Assembly (NCBI GenBank): GCA_938005315.1 | Contig: CALLOB010000020.1 | Span: 275-64,274, forward strand | DNA: 64,000 nt | Direction of reading: 5' to 3' | From: an uncultured Phycisphaerae bacterium | Lineage (GTDB): Bacteria > Planctomycetota > Phycisphaerae > UBA1845 > PWPN01 | Part shown: positions 11,051-52,843 of the stretch, one piece after another | How the letters are laid out: each line of letters starts with the position of its first letter | How positions within the stretch are numbered: position 1 is the first letter of the stretch | Made by a program: the position numbers and the translations under genes | Notes under the pieces: generated by a model | Seen by the model: only the letters and a program-made list of their open reading frames with translations | Databases searched by the model: none | Told to the model about the DNA's origin: nothing

Positions 11051-11478
11051 TCGCCGAGGTGAAGCATCGGCCAGCGTTCTTCACTCGGTCGTGCGCCCGC
11101 TTGGTCCGGCGGCCGCGCCGATGCGAACGCGATGAGGTTCAGACCGGACCGTGCCCGGTGGGTCCGGCTCCGGCGGTCCCGGCGCCGGAGATCTGGCCGC
11201 ACGCATCCTGTGGCAGGGTCTGCGCCCGCCCCTGGCGGTCCCGGCGCCGGAACCTCCGGTGGCCGATCCTTCCGGACGCGGGGCAGGGGACGCGGGGTAC
11301 CGCGCAACCACCGGCCACCCGCGGCGGGCCGCCCGGGTGCTGGGCCGGGCGCAACGTAGTCAGCGATGGTCGACGCCGAGCGCCGCCGGGGCCGACCGAG
11401 AGCGGGGGCGGGCTTTTTTAGACGGGCGCGCCGGTCGGCGGTGCACGGGCGGCATGGGCAATCCGCAGACGGTCGGGT

Positions 11479-12024
11479 CTACATCTCGATGCCGATGCGG
11501 GCGGGGATGCCCTGGCGGAAGTAGTGTTTGACCTCGCACATGTCCGTCACCAGATCGGCGCGGGCGACGATGCGGGGATCGGCTCCGCGTCCGGTCAGGA
11601 CGAGTTCGAGATGCTCGGGCCTGGCCTCGATCAGGTCCAGCAGCCAGTCGACGTCGATCAGCCCCATGGCCGTGCCGATGTTGGCCTCATCGAGCACGAC
11701 CACGTCGTATTCGCCGCCGTGCACCGCGGCATGCACCTCGCCCAGGCCCGCGGCCGCCAGGGCGGAGTCCTGGCGGGTCGGCGCGCCGGCGATGAAGCGG
11801 GGCAGGCCGAACTGCCTGATGGTGACGCGGTCCGCCAGGCGAGCCAGGGCGTGCAGTTCGCTGCTGCAGCTGCCCTTGGCGAACTGGGCGACGAACACGC
11901 GCAGGCCGGCGCCGGCGGCCCGCAGCACCAGCCCCAGGGCCGCGGTGGTCTTGCCCTTGCCGTTGCCGGTGTAGACGTGCACGTATCCGCGTCGCACGCA
12001 CCTGCCCTGATCTGAGGTCTCCAT
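11479..12024 (-). CDS. cobO: Cob(I)yrinic acid a,c-diamide / cob(I)alamin adenosyltransferase
   Basis: Internal ATG at 12024 with GGAG 6 nt upstream. GYVHVYTGNGKGKTTAALGLVLRAAGAGLRVFVAQFAKG (P-loop) and DVVVLDE are CobO/BtuR hallmarks. Confidence 0.9.
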   Translation of the reverse strand: METSDQGRCVRRGYVHVYTGNGKGKTTAALGLVLRAAGAGLRVFVAQFAKGSCSSELHALARLADRVTIRQFGLPRFIAGAPTRQDSALAAAGLGEVHAAVHGGEYDVVVLDEANIGTAMGLIDVDWLLDLIEARPEHLELVLTGRGADPRIVARADLVTDMCEVKHYFRQGIPARIGIEM

Positions 12025-38400: not shown

Positions 38401-40806
38401 ATGAGATCGACTCTTCACCTCCGGCGCGACCCGGGCCGCGCGCGAGCCCGGCTCGCCGCAGCGATGCTCGGCCTGGCGGCGGCGGTACCGCTGCCGGTGC
38501 GGGCCCAGGATCCGACCCCGACGACGGTGCCGGCCGGACCGGTTTCGCCGTTCGACGGCCGGCCGATCACCGAGTTGCGGGTGATCGGCCTGGAACGGAT
38601 CGACGAAGCTTACGTCCGCAACCAGATCCGCACCCGCGTGGGACAGACCTACTCGCAGACGCAGGTGCAGCGGGACATCGGCACGCTGCTGCGGACGGCG
38701 CGGTTTCTGGACGTGCGGGCCCAGCCCGCCGAGGTCCCCGGCGGCGTGGTCGTGACCTTCAGCCTGGTGGAGAAGCCGGAGGTCGAGTCGGTCTCCTTCG
38801 TCGGTAACGTCAGGTTCAAGGAAAAGAAGCTGCTGGAAGCCCTGACTTTCGCGGCCGGCGATCCGCTGGACATGTTCGAGATCCGCCAGGGCCGGGAGGC
38901 CATCGAGCGGCTCTACCGCGAGAAGGGTTACGCCTTCGCCGAGGTCACGGTCGATGAGGAGCAGGTCCGGACCGGGCGCCGGGTGGTCTACACCATCGTG
39001 GAGAACCAGCGCGTCCGGGTGCGGGGGATCCGCTTCGAGGGCGCGTATGCCTTCGACGCGACGGAGCTGGAAAACGCGATCGAGACCAAGACCTACATCT
39101 GGATCTTCCGCACCGGCGACTACGACCCCGACAAGGTCGCGCGGGACGCGGCCACGCTTCAGGCCTACTACCGCGACCGCGGCTTCCTGGACGCCGAGGT
39201 GAGCTGGGTGCCCGAGTTCCGGGACGTGGCCCGCGAGGAGCTGGACATCATCTTCCGGATCAACGAGGGCGTGCGCTACACGGTGGAGGAGATCCGGTTC
39301 GAGGGCCACGAAGTGGTCACCGAGGAGGAGCTGCTGGCGGCCATGCGGCTGAAGGTGGGCGACCCCCTGCTGGCCGCCCAGCTTAACACCGACGTCAAGA
39401 GCATCGAGACGCTCTACGGCTCGCGGGGCTACATCGAGGCCCAGGTGGCCGCGGGATGGGTCTACTCGGCCGAGCCCGAGCGGGTCATCGTGACCATCCG
39501 CATCCGCGAGGGCGAGCCGTTCAGGTTCGGCTGGATCGAGGTCAACGGGAACCTCAAGACCCAGGAGAAGTGCGTGCGGCGCGAGCTGCGCTTCTTCCCC
39601 GAGGACGTCTACGACATCACCCTGACCCGGGCGGCCGAGAAACGTCTCAAGGAGACCGGCCTGTTCACCGAGGCCCGGATCGAGCCGGTGGCGCCGCCGG
39701 ACAACGCCCCCGGCGTGCGCGACGCGATCGTGACGGTCACCGAGAACCCGCAGACCACCCAGTTCATCGCCGGCATCGGGGCCAGCAGCGACAGCGGCCT
39801 GGTCGGCAACATCGTGCTGGAGAACACCAACTTCGACATCCTCGACCGCCCCCGGACCTGGGAGGAGTTCTTCCGCGGGCGGGCCTTCCGCGGCGCCGGG
39901 CAGACCATGCGGCTGCAGCTGGAGCCGGGCACGGAGTTCACGCGCTTCCGGATCGACTTCCGCGAGCCGTATCTCAACGACCGGCCGATCGGCTTCAACA
40001 CCAGCCTGTACCTGTTCGAGCGGGGACGCGACGGCTACGACGAGCAGCGGGCGGGCTTCACCTTCAGCTTCGACCACAAATTCGAGAAGGGCTTCCTGAA
40101 GGACTGGATCGGCGAGATCGCCTTCCGCAACGAGTACGTCAACGTGGCCGACCGAGAGAGTTTCGCGGCGAAGGACATCCGCGATGCCGAGGGCGGCCAT
40201 TACCTCTCAAGCATCAAGCTCTCGCTGGCTCACGACACCACCGACAGCCGGTTCAACCCCACCGAGGGCCACCGCTTCGTGACCAGCGTCGAGCAGTTCG
40301 GGATGATGGGCGGAGATTACTTCTTCACCGAGTTCATGGCCCGCTACATCCAGCACTGGACGGTGGCCATCGACGAGCAGGACCGGCGCAGCGTCGTCTC
40401 CTGGCACGCCACGCTCGGGCAGATGTTCGGCGACACGCCGGTCTTCGAGCGCTTCTACGCCGGCGGCATCGGCTCGTTCCGCGGCTTCGACTATCGCGGC
40501 ATCAGCCCCCGCGACGGCCTGCGGCGCAACCGCATCGGCGGCGACTTCATGGTCCTGACCGGCGCCGAGTACACCTTCCCGATCTACGACAAGGTCATCC
40601 GCGGCGTGTTTTTCGCGGACATGGGCACCGTCGAGCGCGACTTCGGCATCTCCTCCTGGCGGGCGGCCGTCGGGGCCGGCATCCGCCTGACGCTGGACAT
40701 CTTCGGCACCGTGCCGATGGAGTTCGACCTGGCCCTGCCGGTGGCCAAGGACGGCGAGGACGACACCCGCATCTTCAGCTTCTTCATCGGCCTGCCGTTC
40801 CTGTGA
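38401..40806 (+). CDS. bamA: Outer membrane protein assembly factor BamA (Omp85 family)
   Basis: Signal peptide. Repeated POTRA-like segments (I..I.F.GN..F....L). C-terminal barrel ending IFSFFIGLPFL with a terminal aromatic residue. Confidence 0.9.
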   Translation: MRSTLHLRRDPGRARARLAAAMLGLAAAVPLPVRAQDPTPTTVPAGPVSPFDGRPITELRVIGLERIDEAYVRNQIRTRVGQTYSQTQVQRDIGTLLRTARFLDVRAQPAEVPGGVVVTFSLVEKPEVESVSFVGNVRFKEKKLLEALTFAAGDPLDMFEIRQGREAIERLYREKGYAFAEVTVDEEQVRTGRRVVYTIVENQRVRVRGIRFEGAYAFDATELENAIETKTYIWIFRTGDYDPDKVARDAATLQAYYRDRGFLDAEVSWVPEFRDVAREELDIIFRINEGVRYTVEEIRFEGHEVVTEEELLAAMRLKVGDPLLAAQLNTDVKSIETLYGSRGYIEAQVAAGWVYSAEPERVIVTIRIREGEPFRFGWIEVNGNLKTQEKCVRRELRFFPEDVYDITLTRAAEKRLKETGLFTEARIEPVAPPDNAPGVRDAIVTVTENPQTTQFIAGIGASSDSGLVGNIVLENTNFDILDRPRTWEEFFRGRAFRGAGQTMRLQLEPGTEFTRFRIDFREPYLNDRPIGFNTSLYLFERGRDGYDEQRAGFTFSFDHKFEKGFLKDWIGEIAFRNEYVNVADRESFAAKDIRDAEGGHYLSSIKLSLAHDTTDSRFNPTEGHRFVTSVEQFGMMGGDYFFTEFMARYIQHWTVAIDEQDRRSVVSWHATLGQMFGDTPVFERFYAGGIGSFRGFDYRGISPRDGLRRNRIGGDFMVLTGAEYTFPIYDKVIRGVFFADMGTVERDFGISSWRAAVGAGIRLTLDIFGTVPMEFDLALPVAKDGEDDTRIFSFFIGLPFL

Positions 40807-40954
40807 TCCGGGCCGCGGCGAGGAGCCCTCGCCGCGGCGGCGCGTCCGGACCTGCTCGGCCGGTTGCCGCCCGCGAAAAGAGGGCATAGCATCCACGCCG
40901 TCGGCGGCGCACCGAGGTGTGCGCGGGCTTCCGCGACCTGTGGGAGGTCGAATC

Positions 40955-41512
40955 ATGCGTCTGTTTCACTGCGTCGGCACACTGGTCATGGGGACCCTCC
41001 TCATGGGCTCCACCGGCTGCGTGGGAAGGGTGATCGGCGAGGGCGCCGAGGGGGCCCTGGGCCCCAAAGGCGCCTACTTCGAGCAGAAGCCCGCCGCCCC
41101 CGCCCGCAGCGCCAAAGTGCTCAGCGATTACGGGCGGTTCGAACTCGGCGAGGTCCGAAACGAGGTCCCGCGGCTCGTGCCCGGCGAATTCCTCCGCGAG
41201 TTCCCCCGCAAGTTCGGCAAAGAGCTCCGCGAATCCAGGCTGGCCAGGGCCGCCGGCGGCAAGACGCTGGTCTTCGACGTGACCATCATCCACTACGAGA
41301 AGGCCGACACCGAAGACAACGTTTTCGGCCCGCTGGAGCAGGTCGTCGCCCGGGTTCGGCTGCTGGACAAGGAATCCGGCGAGGTGCTGGCCGAGGGCAA
41401 CGCCATCGGCCGTACCGGCAAGACCGTCGGCCTGGGCGCGGAGACCAAGGCCGAGGGGCTGGCCAGGGCGCTGATCAAGTGGGTCGAGGACTACTGGAGC
41501 GACAAGCGCTGA
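40955..41512 (+). CDS. Lipoprotein of unknown function
   Basis: GGGAGG RBS. MRLFHCVGTLVMGTLLMGSTGC has a lipobox. Confidence 0.6.
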   Translation: MRLFHCVGTLVMGTLLMGSTGCVGRVIGEGAEGALGPKGAYFEQKPAAPARSAKVLSDYGRFELGEVRNEVPRLVPGEFLREFPRKFGKELRESRLARAAGGKTLVFDVTIIHYEKADTEDNVFGPLEQVVARVRLLDKESGEVLAEGNAIGRTGKTVGLGAETKAEGLARALIKWVEDYWSDKR

Positions 41513-41530: not shown

Positions 41531-42658
41531 TCAGTCATGTCCGAAATGCGGCCGCCATGTCGGTGACCGACCGGGACGGAAACGGGCCCTGTTCGCCGGC
41601 CCGGCGCCGCCGTGCGAACCGCCTCCCGCCAGAAAAGCCGGCAGCTTTACCGGCACCCCGGCCAGCCGTCGGGCCATCTCCCGGCTGACCCGCTCCACCG
41701 CATCCCCGCCGCTCAGCGACAGCCACCGGCCGGCACGCAGGACGCAGGACTGCTGCGGGACGGCCGTGCGGGTGAAGGGCCAGGGCGTCCGGCCGCTCTG
41801 GACGATGTTGCAGTACGACTTGCCCGGGTGCCGCCGGAAACCCCGCCCGGCCATCTGGACGGTCGGGAGACGCGAGGCGTCGCGCACGAACACCGTCCGC
41901 AGGTCCGGGCAGTCGAAGCCCTCGTTGAGGATGGCGACGTTGGCCACTACGTCGAACTCCCCGGCGTCGAACGCGTCGAGCTGGCGCTCGCGATCGGTCG
42001 TGGCGCTGACCACCTCGCAGTGCACGCCGGCCTCGGCCAGCAGTCCGGCGAACGCCCCGCACTCCGCCAGCGTCGCGAAGAAGACCACGCTCTTGCCCCA
42101 GCGATCCGGCTCGCGCAGGTACACGGCGGCCACGGTCTGAGGCGTCCACTCCTCGATCGACCAGTGGCGATAGGGGCACAACCAGCCGTCCTGGATCAGA
42201 CGATGCAGCCCGGCGTCGCGGACCACCCGCTTGAAGGCCAGCTTGAGCCGGTCGGTGCGGTAGGGCGTGGCGGTGGTGCCCAGGATGAAACGCCCCCCGG
42301 CGGCCTCGTGGATGTGCACGCAGGAGGCGGTGGCGTCGTGCTGGGCCTCATCCACCACCGTGATGTCTGCCGGAGGAGGCGAGGAGTCGAACATGCTCAC
42401 CAGGTTCAGCCGCCGCAGCCCGAAGAAGCGGATGTTGGCCTGGTCGGCCTGCCGGAGCAGGTTCCGCCGCATGGCCACCCAGTTGCTGCGCAGCCCGTGG
42501 CGATCCTCGAAATGCCTGAGCACCCGCATGGCCATGATCGTCTTGCCGCTGCCGGTGGGGCTCTCGATCATCACCGTGCGGTCGCCGGCCTCGAAGTGGC
42601 GGATGACCTGGGCGACGACGCGGTCCTGATAATCACGCGATTCGTACTTCTGCAGCAT
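41531..42658 (-). CDS. Minimal SF2 helicase (DEAH/ResIII-type, about 375 aa)
   Basis: ATG at 42658 with GGGGAG upstream. DYQ (Q motif), SPTGSGKT (Walker A), VVDEAQH (motif II), TATP (III), QMAGRGFR (VI). Arg-rich C-terminal tail. Confidence 0.8.
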   Translation of the reverse strand: MLQKYESRDYQDRVVAQVIRHFEAGDRTVMIESPTGSGKTIMAMRVLRHFEDRHGLRSNWVAMRRNLLRQADQANIRFFGLRRLNLVSMFDSSPPPADITVVDEAQHDATASCVHIHEAAGGRFILGTTATPYRTDRLKLAFKRVVRDAGLHRLIQDGWLCPYRHWSIEEWTPQTVAAVYLREPDRWGKSVVFFATLAECGAFAGLLAEAGVHCEVVSATTDRERQLDAFDAGEFDVVANVAILNEGFDCPDLRTVFVRDASRLPTVQMAGRGFRRHPGKSYCNIVQSGRTPWPFTRTAVPQQSCVLRAGRWLSLSGGDAVERVSREMARRLAGVPVKLPAFLAGGGSHGGAGPANRARFRPGRSPTWRPHFGHD

Positions 42659-42732
42659 GGTCGGAACTCCCCGGCCCGCGAACATGTCTGGATCCCGCGA
42701 ACCTCTTCGGATTCGGCACTCGTGCATCCGAA

Positions 42733-42789
42733 CTTCTTTCTTCTCGCTTTCCCCATCTTGCTCCTCCGTTCTCGCTTCTCTTTCGCCTT
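42733..42789. repeat. 57-nt polypyrimidine (plus strand) / polypurine (minus strand) tract with internal TTCTCGCTT direct repeat
   Basis: CTTCTTTCTTCTCGCTTTCCCCATCTTGCTCCTCCGTTCTCGCTTCTCTTTCGCCTT has 51 of 57 pyrimidines by my count. This is striking against the GC-rich, mixed background. It lies between the DUF932-like gene and the helicase gene. Confidence 0.8.
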
Positions 42790-42934
42790 GGCGGCCGGCG
42801 CCGCCGGTCATGCCCGAAGAAAGCGGGCCGCCAACGCGGAGCACCGGAGCGGCCGGCCCCCGCGCCGGCCGGGGCGAAAGGGGGGCTTCGCCGACCGAAA
42901 ACACGCCCCCGGCGCGCGGTGTTCCCAGAGGCGC

Positions 42935-44017
42935 TCAATTGAAGTAGAACGGCGGCGGCTCACGGCTGTCGCCGGTCTCCAGGCTGCCCTCGAGGTCGTA
43001 CTCGTCGGCCAGCGTGCCGCCGACCCAGGCGTGCAGGCGGAGAGGCTCCGACAGCTTGTCGGCATGATGCGTGGTGATCTCGGTCGCGGCGGTGATCAGG
43101 TCATAGACCGTGCAGTCCATCGGCAGCATGCGCTGCCTGCGGGGGCTGACGGCCTGTTCTCCGGCCACACCGTATTTCAACGACAGGTCTCCGGTCAGCC
43201 GCGAAAGCCGTTTGTAGACCGGCTCGAGATCCTTCCGCCGGCGCGGTTCCGTCGCCCGGGCCAGCGCCCGGCTGAAGGTGCGGACCTCATACACGCTGGC
43301 CTCGGAGCGCCGGGCGGACTGCAGCCGCTGGCGAAGAGCCGCGCAACCCTCCTCGTTGGAGTAGCAGTCCATCGCCCGGGCCAGCGGACCGGCAGCCCCA
43401 TCCGACGCCCGGCGCCCCAGCGACACCTCGGTCCGGAACACGCGGGCGTAGCTGATCAGCCCGTTGGCGCAGACCTGGCGGATCATGGACAGGTACACGC
43501 TCGGCAGGCTCAGGCCGTCCATCGGCGTCTGGAACGTGCAGGTGTGCTGGAATACATCCTTGCCCAGCTGCCAGTCGGCCTCGTCAAGCTGATGCACGCT
43601 GGTGACCACACCGTCCTCGTACCGGGCCGACACCAGCCGGTCGCCCTGGCCCCTCAGCACGCGGCAGATGCCGGTCGGCCTGACCACCGGCCGCTGGGGA
43701 TCGGACATGCCCAGGGCGGTGTCCCCGTCGATGACCAGACGCACGCGGCTGCGCGGATGCACCTCCTGAATTCGGCCGAAGACCTCCTGCGGCGTGTAGT
43801 AGTGGAAAAAGGTGGGGCTGATCCGGAAGCACTTCCACAATGAGGCCAGGAAACGCCGGGAGATCCGAAGATCCCGTCCGTCGATCTGTGCGCCGCACAA
43901 CACCCGCCGGAGCCTGACCGCGCCGCTGCGGATCTCTCCCCACTGAGGCTTGATCGCTCCAATGGGGATTTCTATCGTCTCCAGTCGGGCCAGTCGCTTC
44001 GCCAATGCCGCCACCAT
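42935..44017 (-). CDS. Hypothetical protein, DUF932-like (phage/plasmid-associated family) by weak motif resemblance
   Basis: GGAG RBS 8 nt upstream. FQTPMDGLSLPSVYLSMIRQVCANGL resembles the DUF932 '...DGS...R(V)VCANT(L)' core as I remember it. No catalytic motif recognised. Confidence 0.55.
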   Translation of the reverse strand: MVAALAKRLARLETIEIPIGAIKPQWGEIRSGAVRLRRVLCGAQIDGRDLRISRRFLASLWKCFRISPTFFHYYTPQEVFGRIQEVHPRSRVRLVIDGDTALGMSDPQRPVVRPTGICRVLRGQGDRLVSARYEDGVVTSVHQLDEADWQLGKDVFQHTCTFQTPMDGLSLPSVYLSMIRQVCANGLISYARVFRTEVSLGRRASDGAAGPLARAMDCYSNEEGCAALRQRLQSARRSEASVYEVRTFSRALARATEPRRRKDLEPVYKRLSRLTGDLSLKYGVAGEQAVSPRRQRMLPMDCTVYDLITAATEITTHHADKLSEPLRLHAWVGGTLADEYDLEGSLETGDSREPPPFYFN

Positions 44018-44272
44018 CTCGGGACTCCTGCCTTACCGTCCTCAAGGGCCTTCCCCGGCGGCATCCGGTCGCCGGAGGCCCTCACAGGTAAGTGTGGGCT
44101 CGGGGTATGACAGGATGTGTCGCACCCTCCAAGGTTTTTCTGGAGTCTGTTAGGGGTTATCGGCCCGGGCGAATCCGATCGGGCTTGGGGGGCGGTCGGA
44201 GCCGCGATTCATGTCCGGCTCTGTTCCCTGCGGCCCAAGGCCAGCTGGAGGGCTGGTGGGTCGGATAGGATT

Positions 44273-45301
44273 TCAGGTCTGGTATAGTCGTGCGGCGGCC
44301 AGCAGCTCGTCCCGCATTTCGTCTCTAAGCGATTTCGGTGAAATAACTTCTGCGCATTCGCCGAAGCTTTTAAGCCATCCCTTGAACACACCGACTTCAG
44401 CCAGACGGAAAGTCGCCACAACGCTTTGGGGATACCCGGAGGCCGGCTCGAACAACGTCGGTTCCGGCGTGGGCCATTCGAGCTTCTGGCTCTTGTGCCA
44501 GATGCGTTCGCTGACCAGATCGACGGCCCTGCCGGTGAAGCGAACCTTGATGGCAATCGGCCGGTCCGGGGCGGTGACGATCCCGAAGCTGTCCTCGAAG
44601 TGCCGGCGGATGTCGATGTCGGGCCGCCTGAACGTCTGGCGGGTCGTTTCCAGGCTGGTGATCCGCAGTACCTTCAGGATACGGGTGGCCTTGCTGCGAT
44701 GCGAGTGCCCGAGCACGAACAAATTGCCGTCGAACAGCACCAGCCCGTAGGGGTCGAACTTCGTGACGTAGGGCCGGCGGTCCGGCTGCCAGACGGGGCG
44801 GTAGCCCAGGCTGACGGTGGCGCGGTTGCGGGCCGCCTCGATCAGGGCCCGGATGGTCGGGGCGTGCCCGGCGTGATCGGCCTGGCCGAAGCGGGGGATG
44901 TAGGTGAGCACGTCCACGTCGGCGAAGAAGTCCAGGGCCTTGCGGTGCAAGCTGCTGCGGACCTTCTCGATGGCCGACTGGATGCCCTCGGCCAGGTGCG
45001 TGCCGGCGACCGGCTCGAACATCCGGCCGGCCAGAGCCAGGGACAGTGCCTCGGTGTGGCTGAGCACCAGGGCCCCGGACCTCAGCGTATCGTGCGGCAG
45101 CTTCCACAGCCGGCGGCCGTAGTCGTCTTCGACATGGTCCAGAGGAAAGCCAACCTCGGCCAGAGCCTCGAAATCGCGCTGGATGGTCCGCTTGCTGACG
45201 CCCAGTTCTTCGGCCAGCTCGGCCAGGGTCAGGCCGTCGCCGCGCTTCTGCAGCAGGTTGAGCAGCTTCCACGCGCGCAGCAACTGATCGCCACGGGCCA
45301 T
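44273..45301 (-). CDS. HTH + WYL-domain transcriptional regulator (YafY/PafBC/BrxR-CapW class)
   Basis: N-terminal RAWKLLNLLQKRGDGLTLAELAEELGVSKRTIQRDFEAL (DeoR-type HTH). Central WYL-type SH3-like region (VTKFDPYGLVLFDGNLFVLGHSH...RILKVLRI). C-terminal WCX-like region. Confidence 0.85.
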   Translation of the reverse strand: MARGDQLLRAWKLLNLLQKRGDGLTLAELAEELGVSKRTIQRDFEALAEVGFPLDHVEDDYGRRLWKLPHDTLRSGALVLSHTEALSLALAGRMFEPVAGTHLAEGIQSAIEKVRSSLHRKALDFFADVDVLTYIPRFGQADHAGHAPTIRALIEAARNRATVSLGYRPVWQPDRRPYVTKFDPYGLVLFDGNLFVLGHSHRSKATRILKVLRITSLETTRQTFRRPDIDIRRHFEDSFGIVTAPDRPIAIKVRFTGRAVDLVSERIWHKSQKLEWPTPEPTLFEPASGYPQSVVATFRLAEVGVFKGWLKSFGECAEVISPKSLRDEMRDELLAAARLYQT

Positions 45302-45480
45302 GGTGTGTCTCCGACAAGGATTCTGGCGGGATTATATCGGCGCGGGCGCAAGTTGAAACCCGTCAGGCCCGGGAGCGGTCGAAGCCCCGCCGCACGGTCC
45401 TCCGGCGGCCCGTGCCCGGCGGGGCGGCTTGTGGTACAAGACCGTCGGCGGCCGGTTCCGACCGGCCGGGAGGATGAAAC

Positions 45481-47523
45481 ATGAGAACCGCATGTCTGGC
45501 GTGTCTGGTGCTGCTCGGCTGCCGGGTACCGCCTGCGGGTGCCGACATCCCTTCAAGAACCGACGACGTGCGTTGGCAAAGCCTGCCGCATACCGACTTT
45601 GACTTTCAGCCCAGGCCGCCGGCGAGTCTCGAGGCCTGGCAGGTCCGGGCGCAGGCCTTGCGGACGCAGGTGCGTTTCGCGGCCGGTCTGATTCCCGAAC
45701 CTGCGCGTGCGCCGCTGAACGCCAGGATCTTCGGCCGGCTGGAGCGGCCGGGCTACACCGTGGAGAAGGTGTTCTTCGAGAGCCGCCCCGGGTTGTACGT
45801 CACCGGCAATCTCTATCGGCCCGCGGGACCGGCCGGGCGGCACCCGGCGGTGGCCTGTCCGCACGGTCACTGGCCGCGGGGCCGGCTGAATCATGACGAG
45901 CGAGGCTCGGTGCCGGCGCGCTGCATCGCCCTGGCGCGACTGGGGGCGGTGGTCTTCTCCTGGGACATGATCGGGTACAACGACAGTGGCCGGCAGTTCG
46001 ACCACCGCGACGAGATCTTCCTCGAACCGGCGCTGGCCCTGTGGGGCATCGGCCCGCTGGCCGTGCAGACGGTCAACAGCATCGCGGCCCTGGACTTCCT
46101 GCAATCCCTTCCGGACGTCGATCCCGGGCGGATCGGCGCCACCGGCGGCTCCGGCGGGGGCACGCAGACGTTCATTCTCGCGGCGGTGGACGATCGTCTT
46201 CAGGTGGCGGCGCCGGTGAACATGATCTCGCACACCATGCAGGGCGGCTGCATCTGCGAGAACGCCCCGCTGCTGCGGATCGACACGCAGAACATGGAGA
46301 TCGGGGCCCTTTTCGCCCCCCGGCCCCTGCTGCTGGTCAGCGCCACCGGCGACTGGACGAAGGACACGCCGCAGGTGGAGTTTCCCTTCATCCGCGGCAT
46401 CTACGGCCTGTCCGGGGCGGCCGACCGCGTGGCCAACGTGCACATCGACGCCGAACACAACTACAACCGCGCCAGCCGCGAGGCCATGCTGCGTTTCTTC
46501 GCCCGGCACCTGTTGAACCGCCCCGACGCCGACTCGGTCACCGAGGGCGACATCCGGGTGGAGGCCGACGAGGACCTGCTGGTCTTCGCGGACATGGAAC
46601 CGCCGGCGGACATGCCCGGCCTGCCGGCGCTGATCGAGCGCTTCAAGGAAGAGGACCGCCGGCGCATCGCGGACCTGGTCCGGGCCGGGCCCGAGGGACT
46701 GGGCCGGCTCGTGTCGCTGGCCCGGTTGGGCGTGTCCCAGGCTGCGGGGTCGGAATTCCCGAAGACCGGCGACATCCGGCGCAACGCTCCTGCCGCCGAT
46801 ACCGCAGCGGTCGAGACCCGCAGGGAGGAACTGCTCACGCGCGACGGGCGGCAGGTTCCGCTGGTGCGTCTGTGCAGCTCCCTCTCCCCGGTCAGGAACC
46901 GGGTGTTCATCCTCGTGCACCCCGACGGCCTGGCCTTTGCCGACGCGGGGCGGGAGGCGATCCGGCCGCTGCTGGTTCGCGGTCGGCACGTGGCGGTGGT
47001 CGAGCCTTTCGGTTTAGGCGGCTCCAGGCGGCCGGTGCCGGCGACCAGGCCGCAGTTCTACGACAAGTTCTTCACCACCTTCAACCGCACCGACGCAGCC
47101 GAGGCCGTCTACGACCTGCTGACCGTGCTGGCCGCGGAACTGGCCGCTCCCGGCGTCGAGCGCGTGAGCGTCGCGGCGTTCGGGTCCGCCGGGCCGGTGA
47201 CGCTGGCGGCGCTGGCGCTGCTGCCGGAGAAGCTGCCCGACGGCCGCAGGGTCGAGGCGCTGCTGGACTTCGGCGGTTTCGACGATAGTTCCGATGGGGA
47301 CTACCTGGCCCGGTTCTTCGTGCCGAACGTGCGACGCATCGGCGGGCTGCCGGCCGTCGCGGCCGCGGCGGCGCAGTGCTGCGACCTGCGACTGGTGGGT
47401 ACCGGCGGCCGGACCGATCTTTCCTGCGTCTCGCAGGCCGCCCGACTCGCCGGAAGACATTTCGAGGCGGCCGGTGAGTCGGTCTCCCCCCATCAGCTGC
47501 TCGAGCGGCTGGCCGGAGGCTGA
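45481..47523 (+). CDS. Secreted alpha/beta hydrolase, acetyl-xylan-esterase-like
   Basis: Signal peptide MRTACLACLVLLGC. YTVEKVFFESRPGLYVTGNLYRP...HGH...IGATGGSGGGTQT carries a GxSxG-type nucleophile elbow. Confidence 0.7.
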   Translation: MRTACLACLVLLGCRVPPAGADIPSRTDDVRWQSLPHTDFDFQPRPPASLEAWQVRAQALRTQVRFAAGLIPEPARAPLNARIFGRLERPGYTVEKVFFESRPGLYVTGNLYRPAGPAGRHPAVACPHGHWPRGRLNHDERGSVPARCIALARLGAVVFSWDMIGYNDSGRQFDHRDEIFLEPALALWGIGPLAVQTVNSIAALDFLQSLPDVDPGRIGATGGSGGGTQTFILAAVDDRLQVAAPVNMISHTMQGGCICENAPLLRIDTQNMEIGALFAPRPLLLVSATGDWTKDTPQVEFPFIRGIYGLSGAADRVANVHIDAEHNYNRASREAMLRFFARHLLNRPDADSVTEGDIRVEADEDLLVFADMEPPADMPGLPALIERFKEEDRRRIADLVRAGPEGLGRLVSLARLGVSQAAGSEFPKTGDIRRNAPAADTAAVETRREELLTRDGRQVPLVRLCSSLSPVRNRVFILVHPDGLAFADAGREAIRPLLVRGRHVAVVEPFGLGGSRRPVPATRPQFYDKFFTTFNRTDAAEAVYDLLTVLAAELAAPGVERVSVAAFGSAGPVTLAALALLPEKLPDGRRVEALLDFGGFDDSSDGDYLARFFVPNVRRIGGLPAVAAAAAQCCDLRLVGTGGRTDLSCVSQAARLAGRHFEAAGESVSPHQLLERLAGG

Positions 47524-47548
47524 ATCGCTTGCGCCGGTTTGCGTCACG

Positions 47549-47577
47549 TTGTCGCCCCTGCGTGTCGGGCTTATGAT
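47549..47577 (+). promoter_or_regulatory. Candidate sigma-70 promoter upstream of fmt
   Basis: TTGTCG (47549-47554), 17-nt spacer, TATGAT (47572-47577). It lies about 160 nt upstream of the fmt start. Confidence 0.3.
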
Positions 47578-47735
47578 CGCCCTGCCGCCGCCGATCGGGA
47601 CAGGCCGGGGCACGATGGCGGCGTGCCGGCCTTTGCGGCGCGGCGATGGGGTCCGTGCGACCGCGGTCGCGCGTCGGCCGGGATCGGTAATCGGCCTCGG
47701 CGCTCCGGCAGGCGCCATGCCGGTCGTCCCGAAAG

Positions 47736-48689
47736 GTGGTCATGCGCCTCGTTTACTTCGGATCCGGCGAATTCGCGGTTCCCAGTCTGCGCTGGCTGCA
47801 CAACAGCCCGCATCCGGTGCTGCTGGTGGTGACTCAGCCGGACCGGCCGGCCGGCCGGGGCAAGCAGCTTCAGTCCACGCCGGTGGCCGGGCGGGCCGAG
47901 CAGGACGGGTTGGAACTCGTGCGCTGCCCGGACGTCAATGCCCCGGATTTCGTCGAGCGGATACGCGCCCTGGACGCCGACCTCGGCGTCACCGCGGCCT
48001 TCGGGCAGAAACTGCATGAGCCGATCCGCTCGGCCTTCCGTTACGGCTGCATCAACCTTCACGCCTCGCTGCTGCCGAAGTACCGGGGGGCCGCGCCGAT
48101 CGCGCGGGCGATTCTGGCCGGTGAAACGCTGACCGGCGTGAGCGTGTTCCGCATGGTCGATCGCATGGACGCCGGGCCGGTGCTCATCCGGCGGCAAACC
48201 ATGATCGGACCGACGGAGACCTGCGGGAGTCTGCACGACCGGCTCGCCGGTATCGCGTGCGACGCGCTGGGAGCAGCCATGCGGCTGCTGGAGGCCGACC
48301 CTCATGTGCCGGGCGAACCGCAGGACGAGTCGCAGGCCTGCGCGGCCCCCAGGCTTTCCAAGGCCGACGGCCTGCTGCGCTTCGACGAGCCGGCCGAGCA
48401 GCTGGCCCGCCGTTGCCGGGCGATGTGGCCCTGGCCCACGGCCCGGTGCCGCTACGTCCCACGGCACGGCGATCCGGTGGAGGTGGCCTTGGCCGAGGTC
48501 GCGGTCGTTCCCGCCGCGGTGCGCGAGCCTCCGGGAACGTTGACCGAAGCCCTGACGGTGGCCACCGCGGCCGGCACCCTCGAGATCTACGGCATTCAGC
48601 CGGCCGGCCGGCGATGCATGAGCTGGCGCGACTTCGTGAACGGTCGCAACGTCCGGCCCGGCGACCGGTTCGAGTCCCTGGACGGCTGA
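47736..48689 (+). CDS. fmt: Methionyl-tRNA formyltransferase
   Basis: MRLVYFGSGEFAVPSL...VVTQPDRPAGRGKQL...INLHASLLPKYRGAAPI. Start is GTG 47736 or ATG 47742. Confidence 0.92.
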   Translation: MVMRLVYFGSGEFAVPSLRWLHNSPHPVLLVVTQPDRPAGRGKQLQSTPVAGRAEQDGLELVRCPDVNAPDFVERIRALDADLGVTAAFGQKLHEPIRSAFRYGCINLHASLLPKYRGAAPIARAILAGETLTGVSVFRMVDRMDAGPVLIRRQTMIGPTETCGSLHDRLAGIACDALGAAMRLLEADPHVPGEPQDESQACAAPRLSKADGLLRFDEPAEQLARRCRAMWPWPTARCRYVPRHGDPVEVALAEVAVVPAAVREPPGTLTEALTVATAAGTLEIYGIQPAGRRCMSWRDFVNGRNVRPGDRFESLDG

Positions 48690-48699
48690 GTGCCCACGC

Positions 48700-50220
48700 A
48701 TGCAGTTCATCGTCTTCGTCGCATTCGCCGTCGCTCTCAGCCTGCCGCCCGACGGTCCGCCGTGGCCGACGATCTCCGACCCGCGGGCCACGGTGGCGAT
48801 CGTCTTCGGGCAGGTGCTGGCCGCCGGCCTGGTGGCCGCGGTCTTCGGCGCCGTGGTCCGCCGCCGCCTCGAGCGCCAGCCCGCCTGGCTGCCGGGGGCC
48901 CAGCGGCGGCTGGGACAGGCCAACGTGGCCTTGCGCTTCGTGCTGACGGCCGGCCTGGTCGCCGGGGCCTACGGCACCGACTGGAGCCGGTGGGTGCGGT
49001 CGATCGACTGGATCCGCCCGCTGTGGGGGCTGGACGAACTCCTGATCATCAGCCCCTTCTTCGTCGCCCTGATCGTCGCCTGGATCGCGCTCTATCCGGC
49101 CGACCGGGGCGTCCGGCAGGTGTCGCTGGAGCATCGGCTGTGGCTCAGCGAGCCGGCCCGGCCGGTCTGGAGCCTGGGGGCGTATCTGGCCTTCATGCTC
49201 CGCCACCACGTGCTGATCATCGTCGTGCCCATGCTGCCGATCGTGGTGGCCAACGACGCGGTGAGCCACGAGCACTACGGGCGGGCGATCCGCATGGCCG
49301 CCGGCATCCCCTGGGCCGACCAGGCCGTGCTGGTGGCCGTGGCGGGGGTGGTCTTCCTGTTCGCGCCGGTCATGTTGAGATATATATGGCACACGCAGCG
49401 TCTGCCGCGCGGGGCGCTGCGCGACCGGCTGGAGGCCATCTGCCGTCATGCCGGGCTGACCTACCGCGACATCCTCATCTGGCGCAGCGACGGCATGGTG
49501 GTCAACGCGGCGGTGATGGGGCTGCTGCGGCCGGTGCGCTATGTGCTGCTGTCCGACGGCCTGCTGGAGTCCATGGAGGATCGGCAGATCGAGGCGGTGT
49601 TCGGCCACGAGGCCGGGCACGTCAAGCATCGCCACATCGAGTTCTATTTGCTGTTCGCAGTGCTGACGATGCTGGTCGTCGGCGGGGTGATGGAGCTGGC
49701 GATCCGCTGGTGGCCGGGGCTGCGGGCCGATCCGCGTGCCGCCCGTGATTACCTGCAGGTCGCGGCCATGGGCATGATCGTGCTGCTGTGGGGCGTGGCC
49801 TTCGGGCCGGTGTCGCGGCGCTTCGAGTGGCAGGCCGACCTCTTCGGGGCCCGCTCGGTCACCCCCGAGCCTTCCGGCTGCGACCGGCCCTGTACGGTCC
49901 ACGGCACCGCCCTTCCGGAAACCGCCGGCACATCCGGGCCGCTCCCGGCCGGGCTGTGCGCCACCGCCGCCGATCTGTTCGCCGAGGCCCTGCACCGCAT
50001 CGCGATCCTCAACGGCATTCCCCCCGAGGCCCGCAGCTGGCGTCACTCCAGCATCGCCAACCGGATCGGCCTGCTGAGGCGATATGCCCGCGACCCCGCG
50101 GCGATGGTCCGGCTCGAGCGGTCCGTGATGGCGATCAAGCTCGTCCTGGCCCTGGGCACTGCGCTGGGGCTGGTCGTCGCCGCGTGGCTCTACTGGCCGC
50201 CGCAGTGGCAATCCCGTTGA
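48700..50220 (+). CDS. Membrane M48-family zinc metalloprotease
   Basis: Multiple TM helices. HEAGHVKHRH contains the HExxH motif. Confidence 0.8.
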   Translation: MQFIVFVAFAVALSLPPDGPPWPTISDPRATVAIVFGQVLAAGLVAAVFGAVVRRRLERQPAWLPGAQRRLGQANVALRFVLTAGLVAGAYGTDWSRWVRSIDWIRPLWGLDELLIISPFFVALIVAWIALYPADRGVRQVSLEHRLWLSEPARPVWSLGAYLAFMLRHHVLIIVVPMLPIVVANDAVSHEHYGRAIRMAAGIPWADQAVLVAVAGVVFLFAPVMLRYIWHTQRLPRGALRDRLEAICRHAGLTYRDILIWRSDGMVVNAAVMGLLRPVRYVLLSDGLLESMEDRQIEAVFGHEAGHVKHRHIEFYLLFAVLTMLVVGGVMELAIRWWPGLRADPRAARDYLQVAAMGMIVLLWGVAFGPVSRRFEWQADLFGARSVTPEPSGCDRPCTVHGTALPETAGTSGPLPAGLCATAADLFAEALHRIAILNGIPPEARSWRHSSIANRIGLLRRYARDPAAMVRLERSVMAIKLVLALGTALGLVVAAWLYWPPQWQSR

Positions 50221-50305: not shown

Positions 50306-52843
50306 TCAGTTTGACGGGCGGCGCCGGGCCAACGTGCCCGGGCCGACGCCCGCGGGATAGAGTTTCGTCAGCCGACGCAACACGTCGGCGGCGGGCCGAA
50401 GACCGGCGAACAGGTCGGCGTACAGTCCCAGCACCTCGCAGACCTCGGCCGCCGTCTCGTCGAAAAGCTCCACACGCATCCACGCCGGCCGAAGAACACC
50501 AATCCGGTCCCAGCGGGCCGCGGCTGACTGCACGGTGACGTCGAAGACCGTGGTCCGGCCCGCCGGATCGACGCGCAAGGCCTGCTCCCGCCCGCGGTAA
50601 TCCCGCAGGCGGGCCTGCCCGCCGATGCACGGCCGGCCGCACGCGTCGCAGCCGGCACCGCCATCAACGGCGGCCGACACCGGGCAATACGACGTGTGAA
50701 ACAGCGGCACCCGGGCATGAACGATCAGCTCCAGCTCCACGCCGGGGCACGCGGCCGCCAGGCGGGCCAGTTGCGAGGCGTCGGCGTCGTAGCCCGGCGT
50801 CACCCGCGCGAAGCCCGCCTCGCGCAGGACATCGGCGCTCAGCTCGTTGACCGCGTTCAGCGTGTGGTCGGCCACCTGCGTCAGCCCCGGTGCCCGGCGG
50901 CGCAACAGCACCCCGGCCGCGAGGCTGCGCACCAGCAGGGCATCGGGCCCGGCGTCGGCCAGCGCTTCCACCCATCCTTCCTCGCCGGGCATGAGCACCT
51001 GCGTGGTCGCCAGCGACACCGCCCGCCCGTTCGCGCGGACCGCCGCCACCACCTGCGACGGCTCGCCGCAGCCGGCCTCGACGTGCACCATCGCCGGCGG
51101 GTCTGCGGCACCACGGCACCACTCCAGCACCGCGGCGAGCTGTCCGGCGGACCGGACCAGCACCGACCATCGCGGCGGGGCGACGACCGGATCGGCCCGG
51201 GACAGCGCGGCCCGGGCTTCCGACAGAGCCTCCGGCCGCTCGACCTCGCGGCGGGCGGCGGCCTCGCGAGCCTCGAGGAGCCTGACGATCGCCTCCCGCC
51301 TCATCCGGTTCAGCAGGCTCTTGGGCACCATGACGTCCACGCAGTCGGCCGGGCCGTCCGACCCGCATAATGTCACCGTCCCAAGCTCATAGGGCGTGCC
51401 GCCCAGTCGCCCGAGCTGCTCGCCCAGCAGAGCCGGCGTCAGCCCGTGACGCGCCGCCGGCGGCATCGGGTCTTCGGACGACACCTCGACCTCGTGCCCG
51501 GCCTGGTCGTGAAAACGGATCCGCAGCGGCCGTCCGGCACCGGCCCGGATCTCCACGTGCAGTTTTTCGCGGCGCACCGCCCCACGCCGACGACCGCTGC
51601 GCTCCAGCGATCGCCGCAACGTCGGATCGTCGGTCTTCCACACGCGGCATCCGCGCGGCACGGAAGGAATGTCGACATCGCCCCACCCCAGACCCACGGC
51701 CACCCGCGGCGCCCGGCCGGGCAGCGCCTGCACGTCGTAGACCCGCCCACCCTGCTCGGGAGCGTCGGGCCGGCCGGTGTCGAAGACGATGCCGTCGCCG
51801 GGCTTGAGCCTGTCGGACAGGTCCGCAGCCGTAAGCCTGATGATCACCCGCCGCGGCGATGTGCCCTCCACATGCCCCAGCAGCAATCCCCGGCTGCGCG
51901 GGAAACGCCCGTCCACCAGCCCGGCGCGGTCGCCGCCGAGAAATCCGCTGGTGAACCCGCGAGAGAAGCTCAGCGTCAGGCGTTCCCGCGCCCGTGGATC
52001 GAGTCCGGCCCGTTCGCCGCGGGCGATGCGGTCGATCAGATCGCGGTAAGTCCGCGTCGCCGCGGCCACATATGCGGCGCTCTTGAGCCGGCCTTCGATC
52101 TTGAGCGCCGCGACACCGATGTCGATGAGGCGCGGCAGCAGCTCGGCGGCCGAGAGATCCCGCGGGCTCATCAGGTAACCGCGGTCGCCGGTGTCAGCCC
52201 GCCGGCCGCCGAGACTCAGCCCCCAGGGCAGGCGGCAGACCTGGGCACACTCCCCGCGGTTGGCGCTGCGACCCCACCACGCCTGGCTGGCCAGGCACTG
52301 CCCGCTGAAGGAAATGCACAGGGCCCCGTGGACGAAAACCTCCAGTTCAATGCTGGTTTGGCGGACGATGTCCGCCACCTGCCGCCACGACAGCTCCCGG
52401 GCCAGGATCACGCGCCGGACTCCCAGCGAGGCCAGCAGGCCGATGCCGGCCGGGTGGGTCTGCGTGGTCTGGGTCGAGGCATGTATCGGCAGCGTCGGGC
52501 ACATCGCCCGCGCCAGCCGCAACAGGCCGAGGTCCTGCACGATGATCGCGTCCACGCCGGCCTCGGCCGCGGCTGCGACGTACCCGGCGGCCCGGTCCAG
52601 CTCGCCCGGAAAGATCAGCGTGTTCAAGGTCAGGTAAGCCCTGACATTGTGGTCATGTATGCGGCGCACCAGCGACGGCAACTCGCCCAGGCGGAAATTC
52701 GTCGCGCGCCGGCGGGCGTTGAAGTCCTCCAGCCCGAAATAGACCGCGTCGGCCCCGTTAGCGATGGCGGCGCGCAGGGCCTCCTCGTTCCCGGCCGGGA
52801 CCAGGAGTTCCGGCAGGCAGGGCTGGACGGCACCGGAGGGCAT
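50306..52843 (-). CDS. Double-module U32-family protein (peptidase U32 / UbiU-UbiV-like)
   Basis: N-terminal module LLVPAGNEEALRAAIANGADAVYFG with the Cys cluster C..F.GQC...ECAQVC. A second U32-like module near the C-terminus carries YCPVS...GCDACGRPC. Confidence 0.85.
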   Translation of the reverse strand: MPSGAVQPCLPELLVPAGNEEALRAAIANGADAVYFGLEDFNARRRATNFRLGELPSLVRRIHDHNVRAYLTLNTLIFPGELDRAAGYVAAAAEAGVDAIIVQDLGLLRLARAMCPTLPIHASTQTTQTHPAGIGLLASLGVRRVILARELSWRQVADIVRQTSIELEVFVHGALCISFSGQCLASQAWWGRSANRGECAQVCRLPWGLSLGGRRADTGDRGYLMSPRDLSAAELLPRLIDIGVAALKIEGRLKSAAYVAAATRTYRDLIDRIARGERAGLDPRARERLTLSFSRGFTSGFLGGDRAGLVDGRFPRSRGLLLGHVEGTSPRRVIIRLTAADLSDRLKPGDGIVFDTGRPDAPEQGGRVYDVQALPGRAPRVAVGLGWGDVDIPSVPRGCRVWKTDDPTLRRSLERSGRRRGAVRREKLHVEIRAGAGRPLRIRFHDQAGHEVEVSSEDPMPPAARHGLTPALLGEQLGRLGGTPYELGTVTLCGSDGPADCVDVMVPKSLLNRMRREAIVRLLEAREAAARREVERPEALSEARAALSRADPVVAPPRWSVLVRSAGQLAAVLEWCRGAADPPAMVHVEAGCGEPSQVVAAVRANGRAVSLATTQVLMPGEEGWVEALADAGPDALLVRSLAAGVLLRRRAPGLTQVADHTLNAVNELSADVLREAGFARVTPGYDADASQLARLAAACPGVELELIVHARVPLFHTSYCPVSAAVDGGAGCDACGRPCIGGQARLRDYRGREQALRVDPAGRTTVFDVTVQSAAARWDRIGVLRPAWMRVELFDETAAEVCEVLGLYADLFAGLRPAADVLRRLTKLYPAGVGPGTLARRRPSN

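Follow-up and report, generated by a model that had tools for sequence, protein, structure and literature searches.

A DriD-like WYL regulator, a protein with a predicted DUF932 fold and a minimal helicase in a Phycisphaerae genome: a possible DNA-processing module shared with large phages

Helicase-containing modules controlled by WYL-domain regulators are already known, and DUF932 is a common family of phages, plasmids and integrative elements that has no assigned function. The subject of this work is a three-gene islet in a stretch of 64,000 nucleotides (nt) from an uncultured Phycisphaerae bacterium (assembly GCA_938005315.1, contig CALLOB010000020.1, positions 275 to 64,274 of the forward strand; the whole stretch is called the window below). 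Its genes encode a WYL regulator, a divergent protein predicted to have the DUF932 fold and a minimal superfamily 2 (SF2) DExH helicase. The islet is read here, with a probability of about 0.42, as a single-stranded DNA (ssDNA)- or damage-induced DNA-processing module, acting as a repair or recombination accessory in its host. This reading is ranked first because of the affinity of the regulator for DriD and PafBC, the RadD-like core of the helicase, the DNA-metabolism context of the phage copies and the lack of any association with defence. A DNA-damage-inducible helicase module was among the alternatives offered in a preliminary description of the locus, made from the sequence alone, and is the one most favoured by the evidence.

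The regulon of DriD from Caulobacter crescentus comprises didA, recA, recJ, dnaG, bapE and CCNA_03891. DriD reads bases through Arg37 and Arg41, its published consensus is ATACGAC(N7)GTCGTAT, and the sites of its homologues have been sought with CGACNNNNNNNGTCG (PMC10853764). The ssDNA-binding residues of its WYL pocket are Y192, K202, R204 and W206 (PMC9186387). DriD-activated promoters have no good -35 elements and carry the box near the -35 position, the box ending at -36 in the case of didA (PMC9186387), and RNA polymerase is contacted through a PafC-type helical linker (PMC13004042). PafBC, a mycobacterial WYL heterodimer and DNA-damage activator, recognises a non-palindromic site and needs RNA polymerase in order to bind DNA (PMC10853764); another report describes ssDNA-triggered induction for this system (PMC11804915). 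BrxR and CapW are encoded next to BREX, CBASS and similar systems. CapW is also described as sensing ssDNA (PMC11662680), and a WYL gene upstream of, and co-directional with, its cargo is the arrangement reported for BrxR-type regulators (PMC9122601). For a minimal SF2 helicase with a repair partner encoded by the adjacent gene, the precedent is archaeal XPB-Bax1. MrfAB of Bacillus subtilis is a further helicase-plus-partner repair pair. The islet has the following genes:

Positions 44273-45301, minus strand: WYL regulator of 342 amino acids (aa), apparently DriD-type, with a winged helix-turn-helix, a PafC-type helical linker, WYL and WCX
Positions 42935-44017, minus strand: divergent protein of 360 aa, predicted DUF932 fold, the middle gene
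Positions 41531-42658, minus strand: minimal SF2 DExH helicase of 375 aa, with two RecA-like domains, a C-terminal module and a basic tail

The helix-turn-helix, WYL and WCX architecture first attributed to the regulator is borne out by Pfam, with matches to HTH_11 (5e-11), HTH_PafC (2e-10, residues 5-115), WYL (5e-10) and WCX (4e-12). The closest solved structure is that of Caulobacter DriD (8tp8/9pfq), which aligns over the full length of the protein (residues 6-339) at low identity and E ~1e-9 and leads every other solved WYL chain by five orders of magnitude; PafB and PafC come second (E ~4e-4), and no other solved chain was better than 1e-3. The segments KRTIQRD and RRTAERM align, placing R38 and R42 opposite the base-reading R37 and R41 of DriD. 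By its architecture, full-length similarity and base-reading arginines, the regulator would be a new member of the DriD-type homodimeric WYL family, from a different phylum to judge by its homologues, nearly all of which belong to Planctomycetota. Its ligand may plausibly be ssDNA, by analogy with the family. HTH_PafC, WYL and WCX are all shared with PafBC; unlike that heterodimer, the window has a single regulator gene and a palindromic box, a combination that implies a predicted homodimer. The likeness to BrxR and CapW lies in the arrangement, with the WYL gene immediately upstream of a mobile module, co-directional with it and with a palindromic operator between the two, but the cargo here is not a recognised defence system, the PafC-type linker is typical of activators and no solved chain other than DriD matches the regulator better than E 4e-4.

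Control of the two-gene cassette by the WYL protein, as first proposed, is supported by a putative operator conserved upstream of the DUF932-like gene. The spacers between the regulator and the DUF932-like gene were aligned from five loci with proteins 54-82% identical: W, the window's own locus, and L086, L018, L001 and L012 (L-numbers designate other loci with homologues, L086 being the closest relative of W). Nearly all of this alignment is unalignable, save for a block containing a box:

Positions 44104-44126, minus strand: palindromic box GGTGCGAC-ACATCCT-GTCATACC, of the DriD-box type CGAC-N7-GTCR, 87 nt upstream of the ATG of the DUF932-like gene
Positions 44091-44096, minus strand: CAYAYT block (CACACT), exactly 8 nt after the 21-bp box core (44105-44125), candidate -10 of the cassette promoter
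Box of W: GTGCGAC-ACATCCT-GTCATAC
Box of L086: GTACGAC-ACACCCT-GTCATAC
Box of L018: GTCCGAC-CCCATCT-GTCGTAC
Box of L001: GTCCGAC-CCGATCT-GTCGGGC
Box of L012: GTCCGAC-CTGAACT-GTCACCC

The consensus palindrome of the window's clade is GTnCGAC-N7-GTCRnAC, and the window box has half-sites and a 7-bp spacing identical to those of the DriD consensus. The box is conserved in the same place in six independent loci (W, L086, L018, L012, L001 and L008/L009), with two copies each in L001 and L008/L009, one of the L008 copies being the perfect palindrome GGTCCGAC-N7-GTCGGACC. The boxes of L008 and L009 have no WYL gene adjacent to them, suggesting control in trans, in the manner of a regulon. The collection as a whole comprises 89 loci, drawn from the contexts of eight homologues and from scans of species-representative genomes and IMG/VR; the motif GGTNCGACNNNNNCTGTC occurs in 10 of them, all in the window's clade, and every copy lies upstream of the DUF932-like gene. 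Within the window, 44104-44126 is the best match to GGTCCGAC-N7-GTCGGACC (13/16 positions) and the sole site to reach 13/16. The short core CGAC-N7-GTCR is not enriched (11 matches versus 12 expected), so the significance of the box rests on its conservation across loci; the other occurrences in the window were rejected as real sites, being at chance level. One of the side finds of this search is a perfect DriD-type core palindrome, CGACGCAACACGTCG, at 50373-50387 in the 3' part of a long ORF (open reading frame; 50306-52843, minus strand), which is probably a coincidence. A scan of metagenomes for perfect GGTCCGAC-N7-GTCGGACC returned 120 loci, only one of which, L168, has a regulator homologue adjoining the box; the remaining palindromes look like chance or unrelated sites, and no regulon could be derived from them.

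The CAYAYT block lies at the same distance of 8 nt in all loci of the clade, as CACACT, CATACT or CACATT (CATGTT in L008), within a spacer that is otherwise unalignable, and it may be the -10 element of the cassette. No -35 consensus was found at this candidate promoter, a feature in common with DriD targets, and a site near -10 that replaced the -35 element would also resemble the sigma-adaptation promoters of PafBC. The regulator appears to have a promoter of its own. W, L086, L018 and L012 all keep the block GGTATAATCCC in an upstream region of which the remainder aligns poorly; this region has a conserved TATAAT but no box:

Positions 45331-45336, minus strand: TATAAT, putative -10 of the regulator's own promoter, 30 nt upstream of the regulator ATG

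At an identity threshold of 46%, the regulator family comprises 46 members. Its 59-64% identity tier includes members that share contigs with the cassette (for example, contigs of 13,357, 16,184 and 8,679 bp), and the four homologues at 46-52% identity that were examined (L168, L210, L211 and L212) have no cassette on their loci. All four carry CGAC-N7-GTCG boxes beside the gene: about 74 nt upstream of it in L168, 119 nt past the stop codon in L210, 125 nt past the stop codon in L211 (with a spacer, ACATCCT, identical to that of the window), and 92 nt upstream in L212, which has two more downstream. Because these stand-alone regulators keep their boxes without the cassette, the regulator-box unit appears to predate its link to the cassette, which would have been placed behind an existing unit. 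The L210 box (7142-7164), the sole perfect one in that 13-kb locus, points towards the 3' end of an ArsP permease gene in convergent orientation; no gene was called beyond it, and its target could be an unannotated small gene or RNA. At L212 (5061-7026 and 7866-7923), the regulator homologue is divergent from genes for an RNase_T-WYL fusion protein and two ADP-ribosylglycohydrolases, with three perfect CGAC-N7-GTCG boxes and SbcCD-like genes close by, and these genes may be other cargo of the same regulator-operator unit.

The preliminary description had treated the trio as a unit, and this holds for the DUF932-like gene and the helicase but not for the WYL gene. In the set of 48 non-redundant loci that extend 3 kb or more to each side (33 bacterial and 15 viral), the helicase lies no more than 3 kb from the DUF932-like gene in 41, that is, in 28 of the 33 bacterial and 13 of the 15 viral loci. 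The helicase gene comes first in 35 of the 41 paired loci and the DUF932-like gene, as in W, in five; the remaining locus is divergent. The identities of the two proteins to their W counterparts correlate (r=0.94), and neighbour-joining trees of the two recover the same clades, with viral and bacterial copies interleaved. The two genes thus appear to form a co-evolving, co-inherited pair, and the interleaving indicates horizontal exchange between phages and hosts. The bacterial matches are nearly all from Planctomycetota (Planctomycetaceae, Pirellulaceae, Gemmataceae, Tepidisphaerales, Phycisphaerales, the chromosome of Limnoglobus roseus PX52, and Alienimonas), and a few more come from metagenome-assembled genomes (MAGs) that bear the labels Desulfobulbus, Chitinophaga, Alcaligenaceae and Omnitrophota. 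The Limnoglobus roseus PX52 pair has the helicase-first order, whereas the DUF932-like gene of Alienimonas stands alone. Linkage of the regulator to the pair is confined to the window's clade (W, L086/87, L018, L012 and L001/2, 56-89% identity), distant WYL/WCX proteins being found at four other loci. It is therefore the pair that is conserved, the trio being an elaboration peculiar to one lineage.

ORF clustering revealed no third recurrent gene in more than 10 of 86 loci, except for antisense shadow ORFs. The cassette has a gene for an AAA+ (PF00004-type) ATPase nearby in three independent contexts, including a viral one, which is too few for it to be called a partner:

L001, positions 4047-4946: AAA+ ATPase
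L002, positions 1213-2490: AAA+ ATPase
L051, positions 6032-6529: AAA+ ATPase
L071, positions 5554-7050: AAA+ ATPase

The DUF932-like gene has no helicase within 3 kb in 7 of the 48 loci, and a search with the helicase profile found no divergent helicase beside these genes. Two DUF932-like copies, one paired with a helicase and the other not, are present on one 408-kb IMG/VR contig (3300000976_000008, L075/L076), and the same two-copy state was observed in one planctomycete MAG (L022 and L052).

The middle protein matches Pfam DUF932 (PF06067) at 22.1 bits (E=1.5e-4), just below the gathering score of 23, as do, weakly, 11 of 25 family members (best 5.5e-5). The weak DUF932-like motif noticed at the outset, RQVCANGL, falls on invariant columns: R180, C183, N185 and G186, invariant in the 25 members, make up R-x-x-C-x-N-G, which we take to be the signature of the DUF932 family. 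Also invariant are R55, E78, R82, R93, H142, D167, R195, R229, R231, E244, E313, H317 and E343. An AlphaFold2 model built on 25 homologues (pLDDT 85, pTM 0.78) was compared with BFVD by Foldseek, which returned phage DUF932/TIGR03299 proteins (E 3e-13, TM 0.60-0.63), with 28 matches at E<1e-3. On the strength of this model, the middle protein is taken as a divergent DUF932-fold protein. Against the PDB, Foldseek found nothing significant for the model (best E 0.46); the RAD52 rings at the top of the list have only E ~0.5 and TM 0.1-0.2, values without meaning, so that no identity as an annealing protein is claimed, and the nuclease fold that had been thought worth looking for did not emerge from this comparison, nor did any other toxic-effector fold. 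There is likewise no match in PADLOC, NCBIfam or PHROG. A word-indexed search yielded 32 relatives, and a profile search of 1.84 billion representatives yielded 614 clusters (50% identity) at E<=1e-3, with 348 at E<=1e-30. One of the candidates, P0032, was considered as a DUF932-helicase fusion and discarded, since it is a read-through of neighbouring genes caused by a frameshift on a contig of poor quality. Canonical DUF932/TIGR03299 proteins, such as YfjQ and YafZ of Escherichia coli, share the fold, the R-x-x-C-x-N-G signature and the occurrence in phages; the window's family differs from them in being larger (360-440 aa), paired with a helicase, below threshold in Pfam and nearly confined to Planctomycetota and their phages.

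The third gene encodes an SF2 DExH helicase, with matches to ResIII (8e-13) and Helicase_C (2e-6) in Pfam and to phrog_16 'DNA helicase' (2.5e-39) in PHROG. The motifs from which it had been recognised as minimal (SPTGSGKT, DEAQH, TATP and QMAGRGFR) are all present on invariant columns of the family alignment, and the Q motif and motifs I (GSGKT), II (DExH), III and VI are invariant in the 25 aligned sequences. Motif VI is followed by a conserved module of about 60 residues and then by a variable, disordered basic tail; there is no nuclease domain. The family is large (more than 1,156 clusters at E<=1e-10) and uniformly short (355-430 aa). An alternative ORF of 457 aa would start at a GTG, but homologues and public gene calls begin at MLQKYE instead. 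The top PDB match of the AlphaFold2 model (pLDDT 81.5) in Foldseek is E. coli RadD (YejH; E 3e-15, TMq 0.62, core only), ahead of SauUSI, LlaBIII, UvrB, XPB(-Bax1) and Hef, and RadD is also the best PDB match by sequence. The core of the protein is therefore nearest to that of a repair helicase. Orthology with RadD was rejected, as the score for NCBIfam NF053632 is 50.7 bits against a cut-off of 720, the protein has 375 aa rather than 586 aa and the extra C-terminal part of RadD is missing. XPB-Bax1 is among the top structural matches, but the DUF932-fold partner is unrelated to Bax1.

As first described, the islet lies between core genes; these are on the opposite strand, and an ORF check recovered all three genes, co-directional, at the coordinates given above:

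Positions 38401-41512, plus strand: BamA and a small lipoprotein, one flank of the islet
Positions 45481-50220, plus strand: 680-aa hydrolase, fmt and M48 peptidase, the opposite flank

These flanks are common only to W and L086 (82-89% identity), all other loci having different neighbours. The ratio of nonsynonymous to synonymous divergence (dN/dS) relative to L086 is 0.145 for the regulator gene, 0.246 for the DUF932-like gene and 0.194 for the helicase gene, compared with 0.255 and 0.100 for the flanking hydrolase and fmt, and synonymous divergence (dS) is alike in the islet (0.38-0.45) and its flanks (0.42-0.46). Hundreds of homologues and dN/dS values of 0.15-0.25 mean that the three genes are real rather than chance ORFs, and they are intact and under purifying selection. 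This selection, together with a dS equal to that of the flanks, means that the islet is functional, has been inherited vertically with its flanks since the W and L086 lineages split and is not a decaying remnant. Over the wider collection of loci, the evidence supports a discrete, accessory and horizontally mobile module.

The window has a G+C content of about 70% (mean 0.696). The proposal that the 3' end of the regulator gene and the spacers are AT-rich does not hold for the second spacer, which at 0.692 is average, but stands for the last 200 nt of that gene (G+C 0.575) and for the first spacer (0.651). These last two parts together form the lowest-G+C 500-nt segment in the whole 64 kb, at 44.1 kb (0.61, z ~ -3). 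Dips of equal depth (0.61-0.62) occur at ~3.7 kb, 14.2-14.5 kb and 57.4-57.7 kb. G+C at third codon positions (GC3) does not set the islet apart: it is 0.85-0.90 in the islet genes, inside the range of the flanking core genes (0.85-0.95). The spacers have the lengths first reported, 255 nt between the regulator and DUF932-like genes and 276 nt between the DUF932-like and helicase genes. The second length is peculiar to this genome: its counterpart measures 73 nt in the relative that is 82% identical, and other loci range from 32 to 355 nt. The W spacer (42659-42934) has an insertion of about 200 nt missing from that relative, which holds, especially at about 42700-42790, a purine-rich tract (GAAAGAGAAGCGAGAACGGAGGAGCAAG...) that is odd at 70% G+C. 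A 61-aa ORF (42571-42756, minus strand), preceded by a Shine-Dalgarno-like GGAGGAG, overlaps the helicase start out of frame. The long spacers had no match in Rfam at E<=1, and shuffled versions of the 276-nt spacer fold as well as the spacer itself (z 0.17). A consensus scan for terminators, weak evidence in that it gave 3 sites versus 2.1 expected, placed one inside this W-specific spacer:

Positions 42902-42918, minus strand: terminator-like hairpin and T-run, just past the stop codon of the DUF932-like gene

The remnant of an integrative element that the preliminary description had entertained, taken as a decaying one that no longer serves any function, is contradicted by the selection analysis and all but excluded. 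Its position between core genes, the local G+C dip at 43.8-44.4 kb and the genome-specific insertion of about 200 nt would fit such an origin. They are set against intact ORFs with all helicase motifs invariant, dN/dS values like those of neighbouring core genes, and conserved operator and promoter blocks. Nor does the islet have the marks of an integrative mobile element: no integrase-like ORF was found in its flanks, no att-like direct repeats around it and no tRNA gene in a scan of the window, and its GC3 equals that of core genes.

The viral loci, 19 in number, lie on IMG/VR contigs of 18-408 kb, with scattered tRNA genes and a G+C content of about 50% in L079, the sole contig measured; these contigs look like genuine large phages. 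An NAD-dependent ligase is encoded near the pair, and other genes on these contigs are for a UvsX-like recombinase, a single-stranded DNA-binding protein, a protein of DNA repair, endonucleases of the HNH and LAGLIDADG types, a tail sheath and a methyltransferase; the phage pair is located in DNA-metabolism territory. Six of the loci (L079, L080, L083, L005, L075 and L077) have a conserved block ahead of the pair, encoding a 460-510-aa protein with a 'IREINQNSMDAGS' motif, presumably akin to that of GHKL-type ATPases, and a 220-330-aa ORFan. Three related contigs of large phages have a tRNA-Leu(TAA) gene at, or directly past, the 3' end of the DUF932-like gene:

L079, positions 11693-11781: tRNA-Leu(TAA)
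L080, positions 11480-11563: tRNA-Leu(TAA)
L083, positions 11275-11358: tRNA-Leu(TAA)

Such surroundings could mean that the pair is a replication, recombination or counter-defence cassette of large planctomycete phages, the chromosomal copies having been captured or domesticated and, in this lineage, acquired by a resident DriD-like unit as a downstream target. The gene content of the 19 loci, with their tRNAs, tail sheath, homing endonucleases, recombinase and ligase, speaks for this origin, as does the fact that the only relatives of the helicase in cultured phages (22-28% identical) have, in some cases, an annotated Sak4-like annealing protein and HNH endonucleases nearby. DUF932 is typical cargo of phages and of integrative and conjugative elements (ICEs), and the occurrence of the regulator-box unit elsewhere without the cassette suggests that the latter was a later addition. 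This explanation, third in rank, is nevertheless improbable for the islet as it stands: there is no other phage gene near the pair in the window or in Limnoglobus roseus, the dS and GC3 shared with flanking core genes point to long vertical inheritance and host selection, and the middle protein has no homologue in 50,697 GenBank phage records or in the plasmids of PLSDB.

In the favoured reading, that of a repair or recombination accessory, a homodimeric DriD-type regulator would bind the CGAC-N7-GTCR box ahead of the two-gene cassette, which would be switched on when the WYL domain carries its ligand, most probably ssDNA arising from DNA damage or from replicating foreign DNA. The DUF932-fold protein and the helicase would then presumably work as a complex, the helicase providing ATP-driven translocation or unwinding and the DUF932-fold protein recognising or processing the DNA substrate. 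The likeliest task in the host would be the damage-induced processing of gapped DNA or of DNA at stalled forks.

Several observations weigh against this reading. The resemblance of the WYL pocket to that of DriD is only partial: R204 is conserved (R207), Y192 and W206 are replaced (F195 and L209), and K202 aligns with an alanine adjoined by a lysine. Only about 8 nt separate the end of the box from the candidate -10, a far shorter distance than at didA, and a site overlapping the -35 region would suit a repressor as well as an activator; activation and repression are indistinguishable from sequence. Most copies of the pair come without any WYL regulator. The biochemical role of the cassette is conjectural, because no function is known for DUF932 (the literature searched on DUF932, YfjQ, YafZ and TIGR03299 reports none) and the fold has no solved relative. 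Where the WYL gene is present, it moves with the cassette as a co-directional three-gene unit in five independent contexts, a behaviour shared by BrxR and CapW, local regulators of mobile defence systems. Finally, the patchy distribution, variable contexts and phage-host exchange of the pair would also fit a defence system.

Such a system, as the preliminary description had it, would be new and WYL-gated. The regulator would silence a potentially harmful pair until phage replication or DNA breakage yielded ssDNA, the helicase would sense aberrant DNA or load onto it and the DUF932-fold protein would be the effector, in a manner resembling that of Hachiman (the effector HamA and the SF2 helicase HamB). 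What the two share is an SF2 DExH helicase in close linkage with a partner of about 300-400 aa; HamB is about twice the size of the window's helicase, and HamA has a nuclease fold rather than the DUF932 fold. A compact helicase with an uncharacterised partner, flanks that differ nearly everywhere, occasional second copies and the interleaving of viral and bacterial copies in trees are all as expected of an anti-phage system, and so is a WYL gene that lies immediately upstream of the pair in the arrangement described for BrxR-type regulators (PMC9122601). A minority of loci adjoin HicAB, an orphan D12 methyltransferase, a transposase or an nSTAND-trypsin protein, and a bioRxiv study reports selection on a DUF932 gene after phage exposure.

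Direct comparison with known systems gave no support to a defence role. The three genes match no named defence system in PADLOC-DB v2 (dated 2023), in agreement with the initial failure to recognise one. The middle protein has no model there, and the best matches of the helicase (PbeA, 4e-14, and a type IV restriction enzyme) span only its C-terminal RecA-like domain; other partial matches are to the helicase domains of type I restriction enzymes, none is to a system-specific model over the full length, and no HamA or HamB model was among the matches at E<=0.1. At 24 bacterial loci, the scan was extended to the three ORFs closest to the pair in either direction (140 ORFs). PADLOC matches were few (PD-T4-6 kinase-like models at most 3, SduA 2, and ShosA, mad6, MzaA and WYL 1 each), some being to generic kinase models, and there was no recurrent partner; this is a moderate negative for defence-island enrichment, given the crude ORF calling and the 2023 date of PADLOC. 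Pfam identified the neighbours as heterogeneous ordinary genes, mostly metabolic or envelope-related, such as those for S9 peptidases, response regulators, oxidoreductases, the glycine-cleavage P protein and planctomycete DUF1549/DUF1553 proteins; in Limnoglobus roseus they encode DUF1559 and DUF1579 proteins, an aldo-keto reductase and an HD-domain signalling protein with FHA and GAF domains. The pair lies among replication and recombination genes in 13 of 15 large phage contigs, an unusual setting for host defence, the regulator is nearer to DriD and PafBC than to other solved WYL proteins, and the middle protein has no recognisable nuclease or toxic-effector fold. An anti-phage function ranks second among the readings, being rather unlikely but far from negligible.

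The pair may also be considered apart from its regulator. It is conceivable, although doubtful, that it is a two-component sensor and processor of aberrant DNA traded between large phages and Planctomycetota, employed in host defence or as a phage tool for counter-defence or superinfection, and wired to a presumed ssDNA-sensing regulator of the DriD type in one lineage. If true, this would be the first functional assignment for the widespread DUF932 fold of phages, plasmids and ICEs. No DUF932-fold protein paired with a minimal helicase, nor any such pair wired in the DriD manner, was present in the libraries and literature searched, although neither arrangement would be a surprise of principle. 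The DUF932-fold/helicase pair is not among the DriD targets named in the literature examined, and the window's regulator gene, in contrast to DriD, is physically linked to its putative target and moves with it.

For the DriD paradigm, the finding is that half-sites, spacing and base-reading arginines reappear in sequences whose relatives are nearly all from Planctomycetota, and that the operator-regulator unit occurs both alone and joined to mobile cargo. If the islet has a defence function, it would be a new system in a phylum with a poorly charted immune repertoire; if it functions in repair, it would be an accessory repair module shared with phages. In either case, a divergent branch of DUF932 with a helicase partner and a DriD-type operator points to ssDNA or DNA-damage signalling, and provides an experimental entry point to this family.

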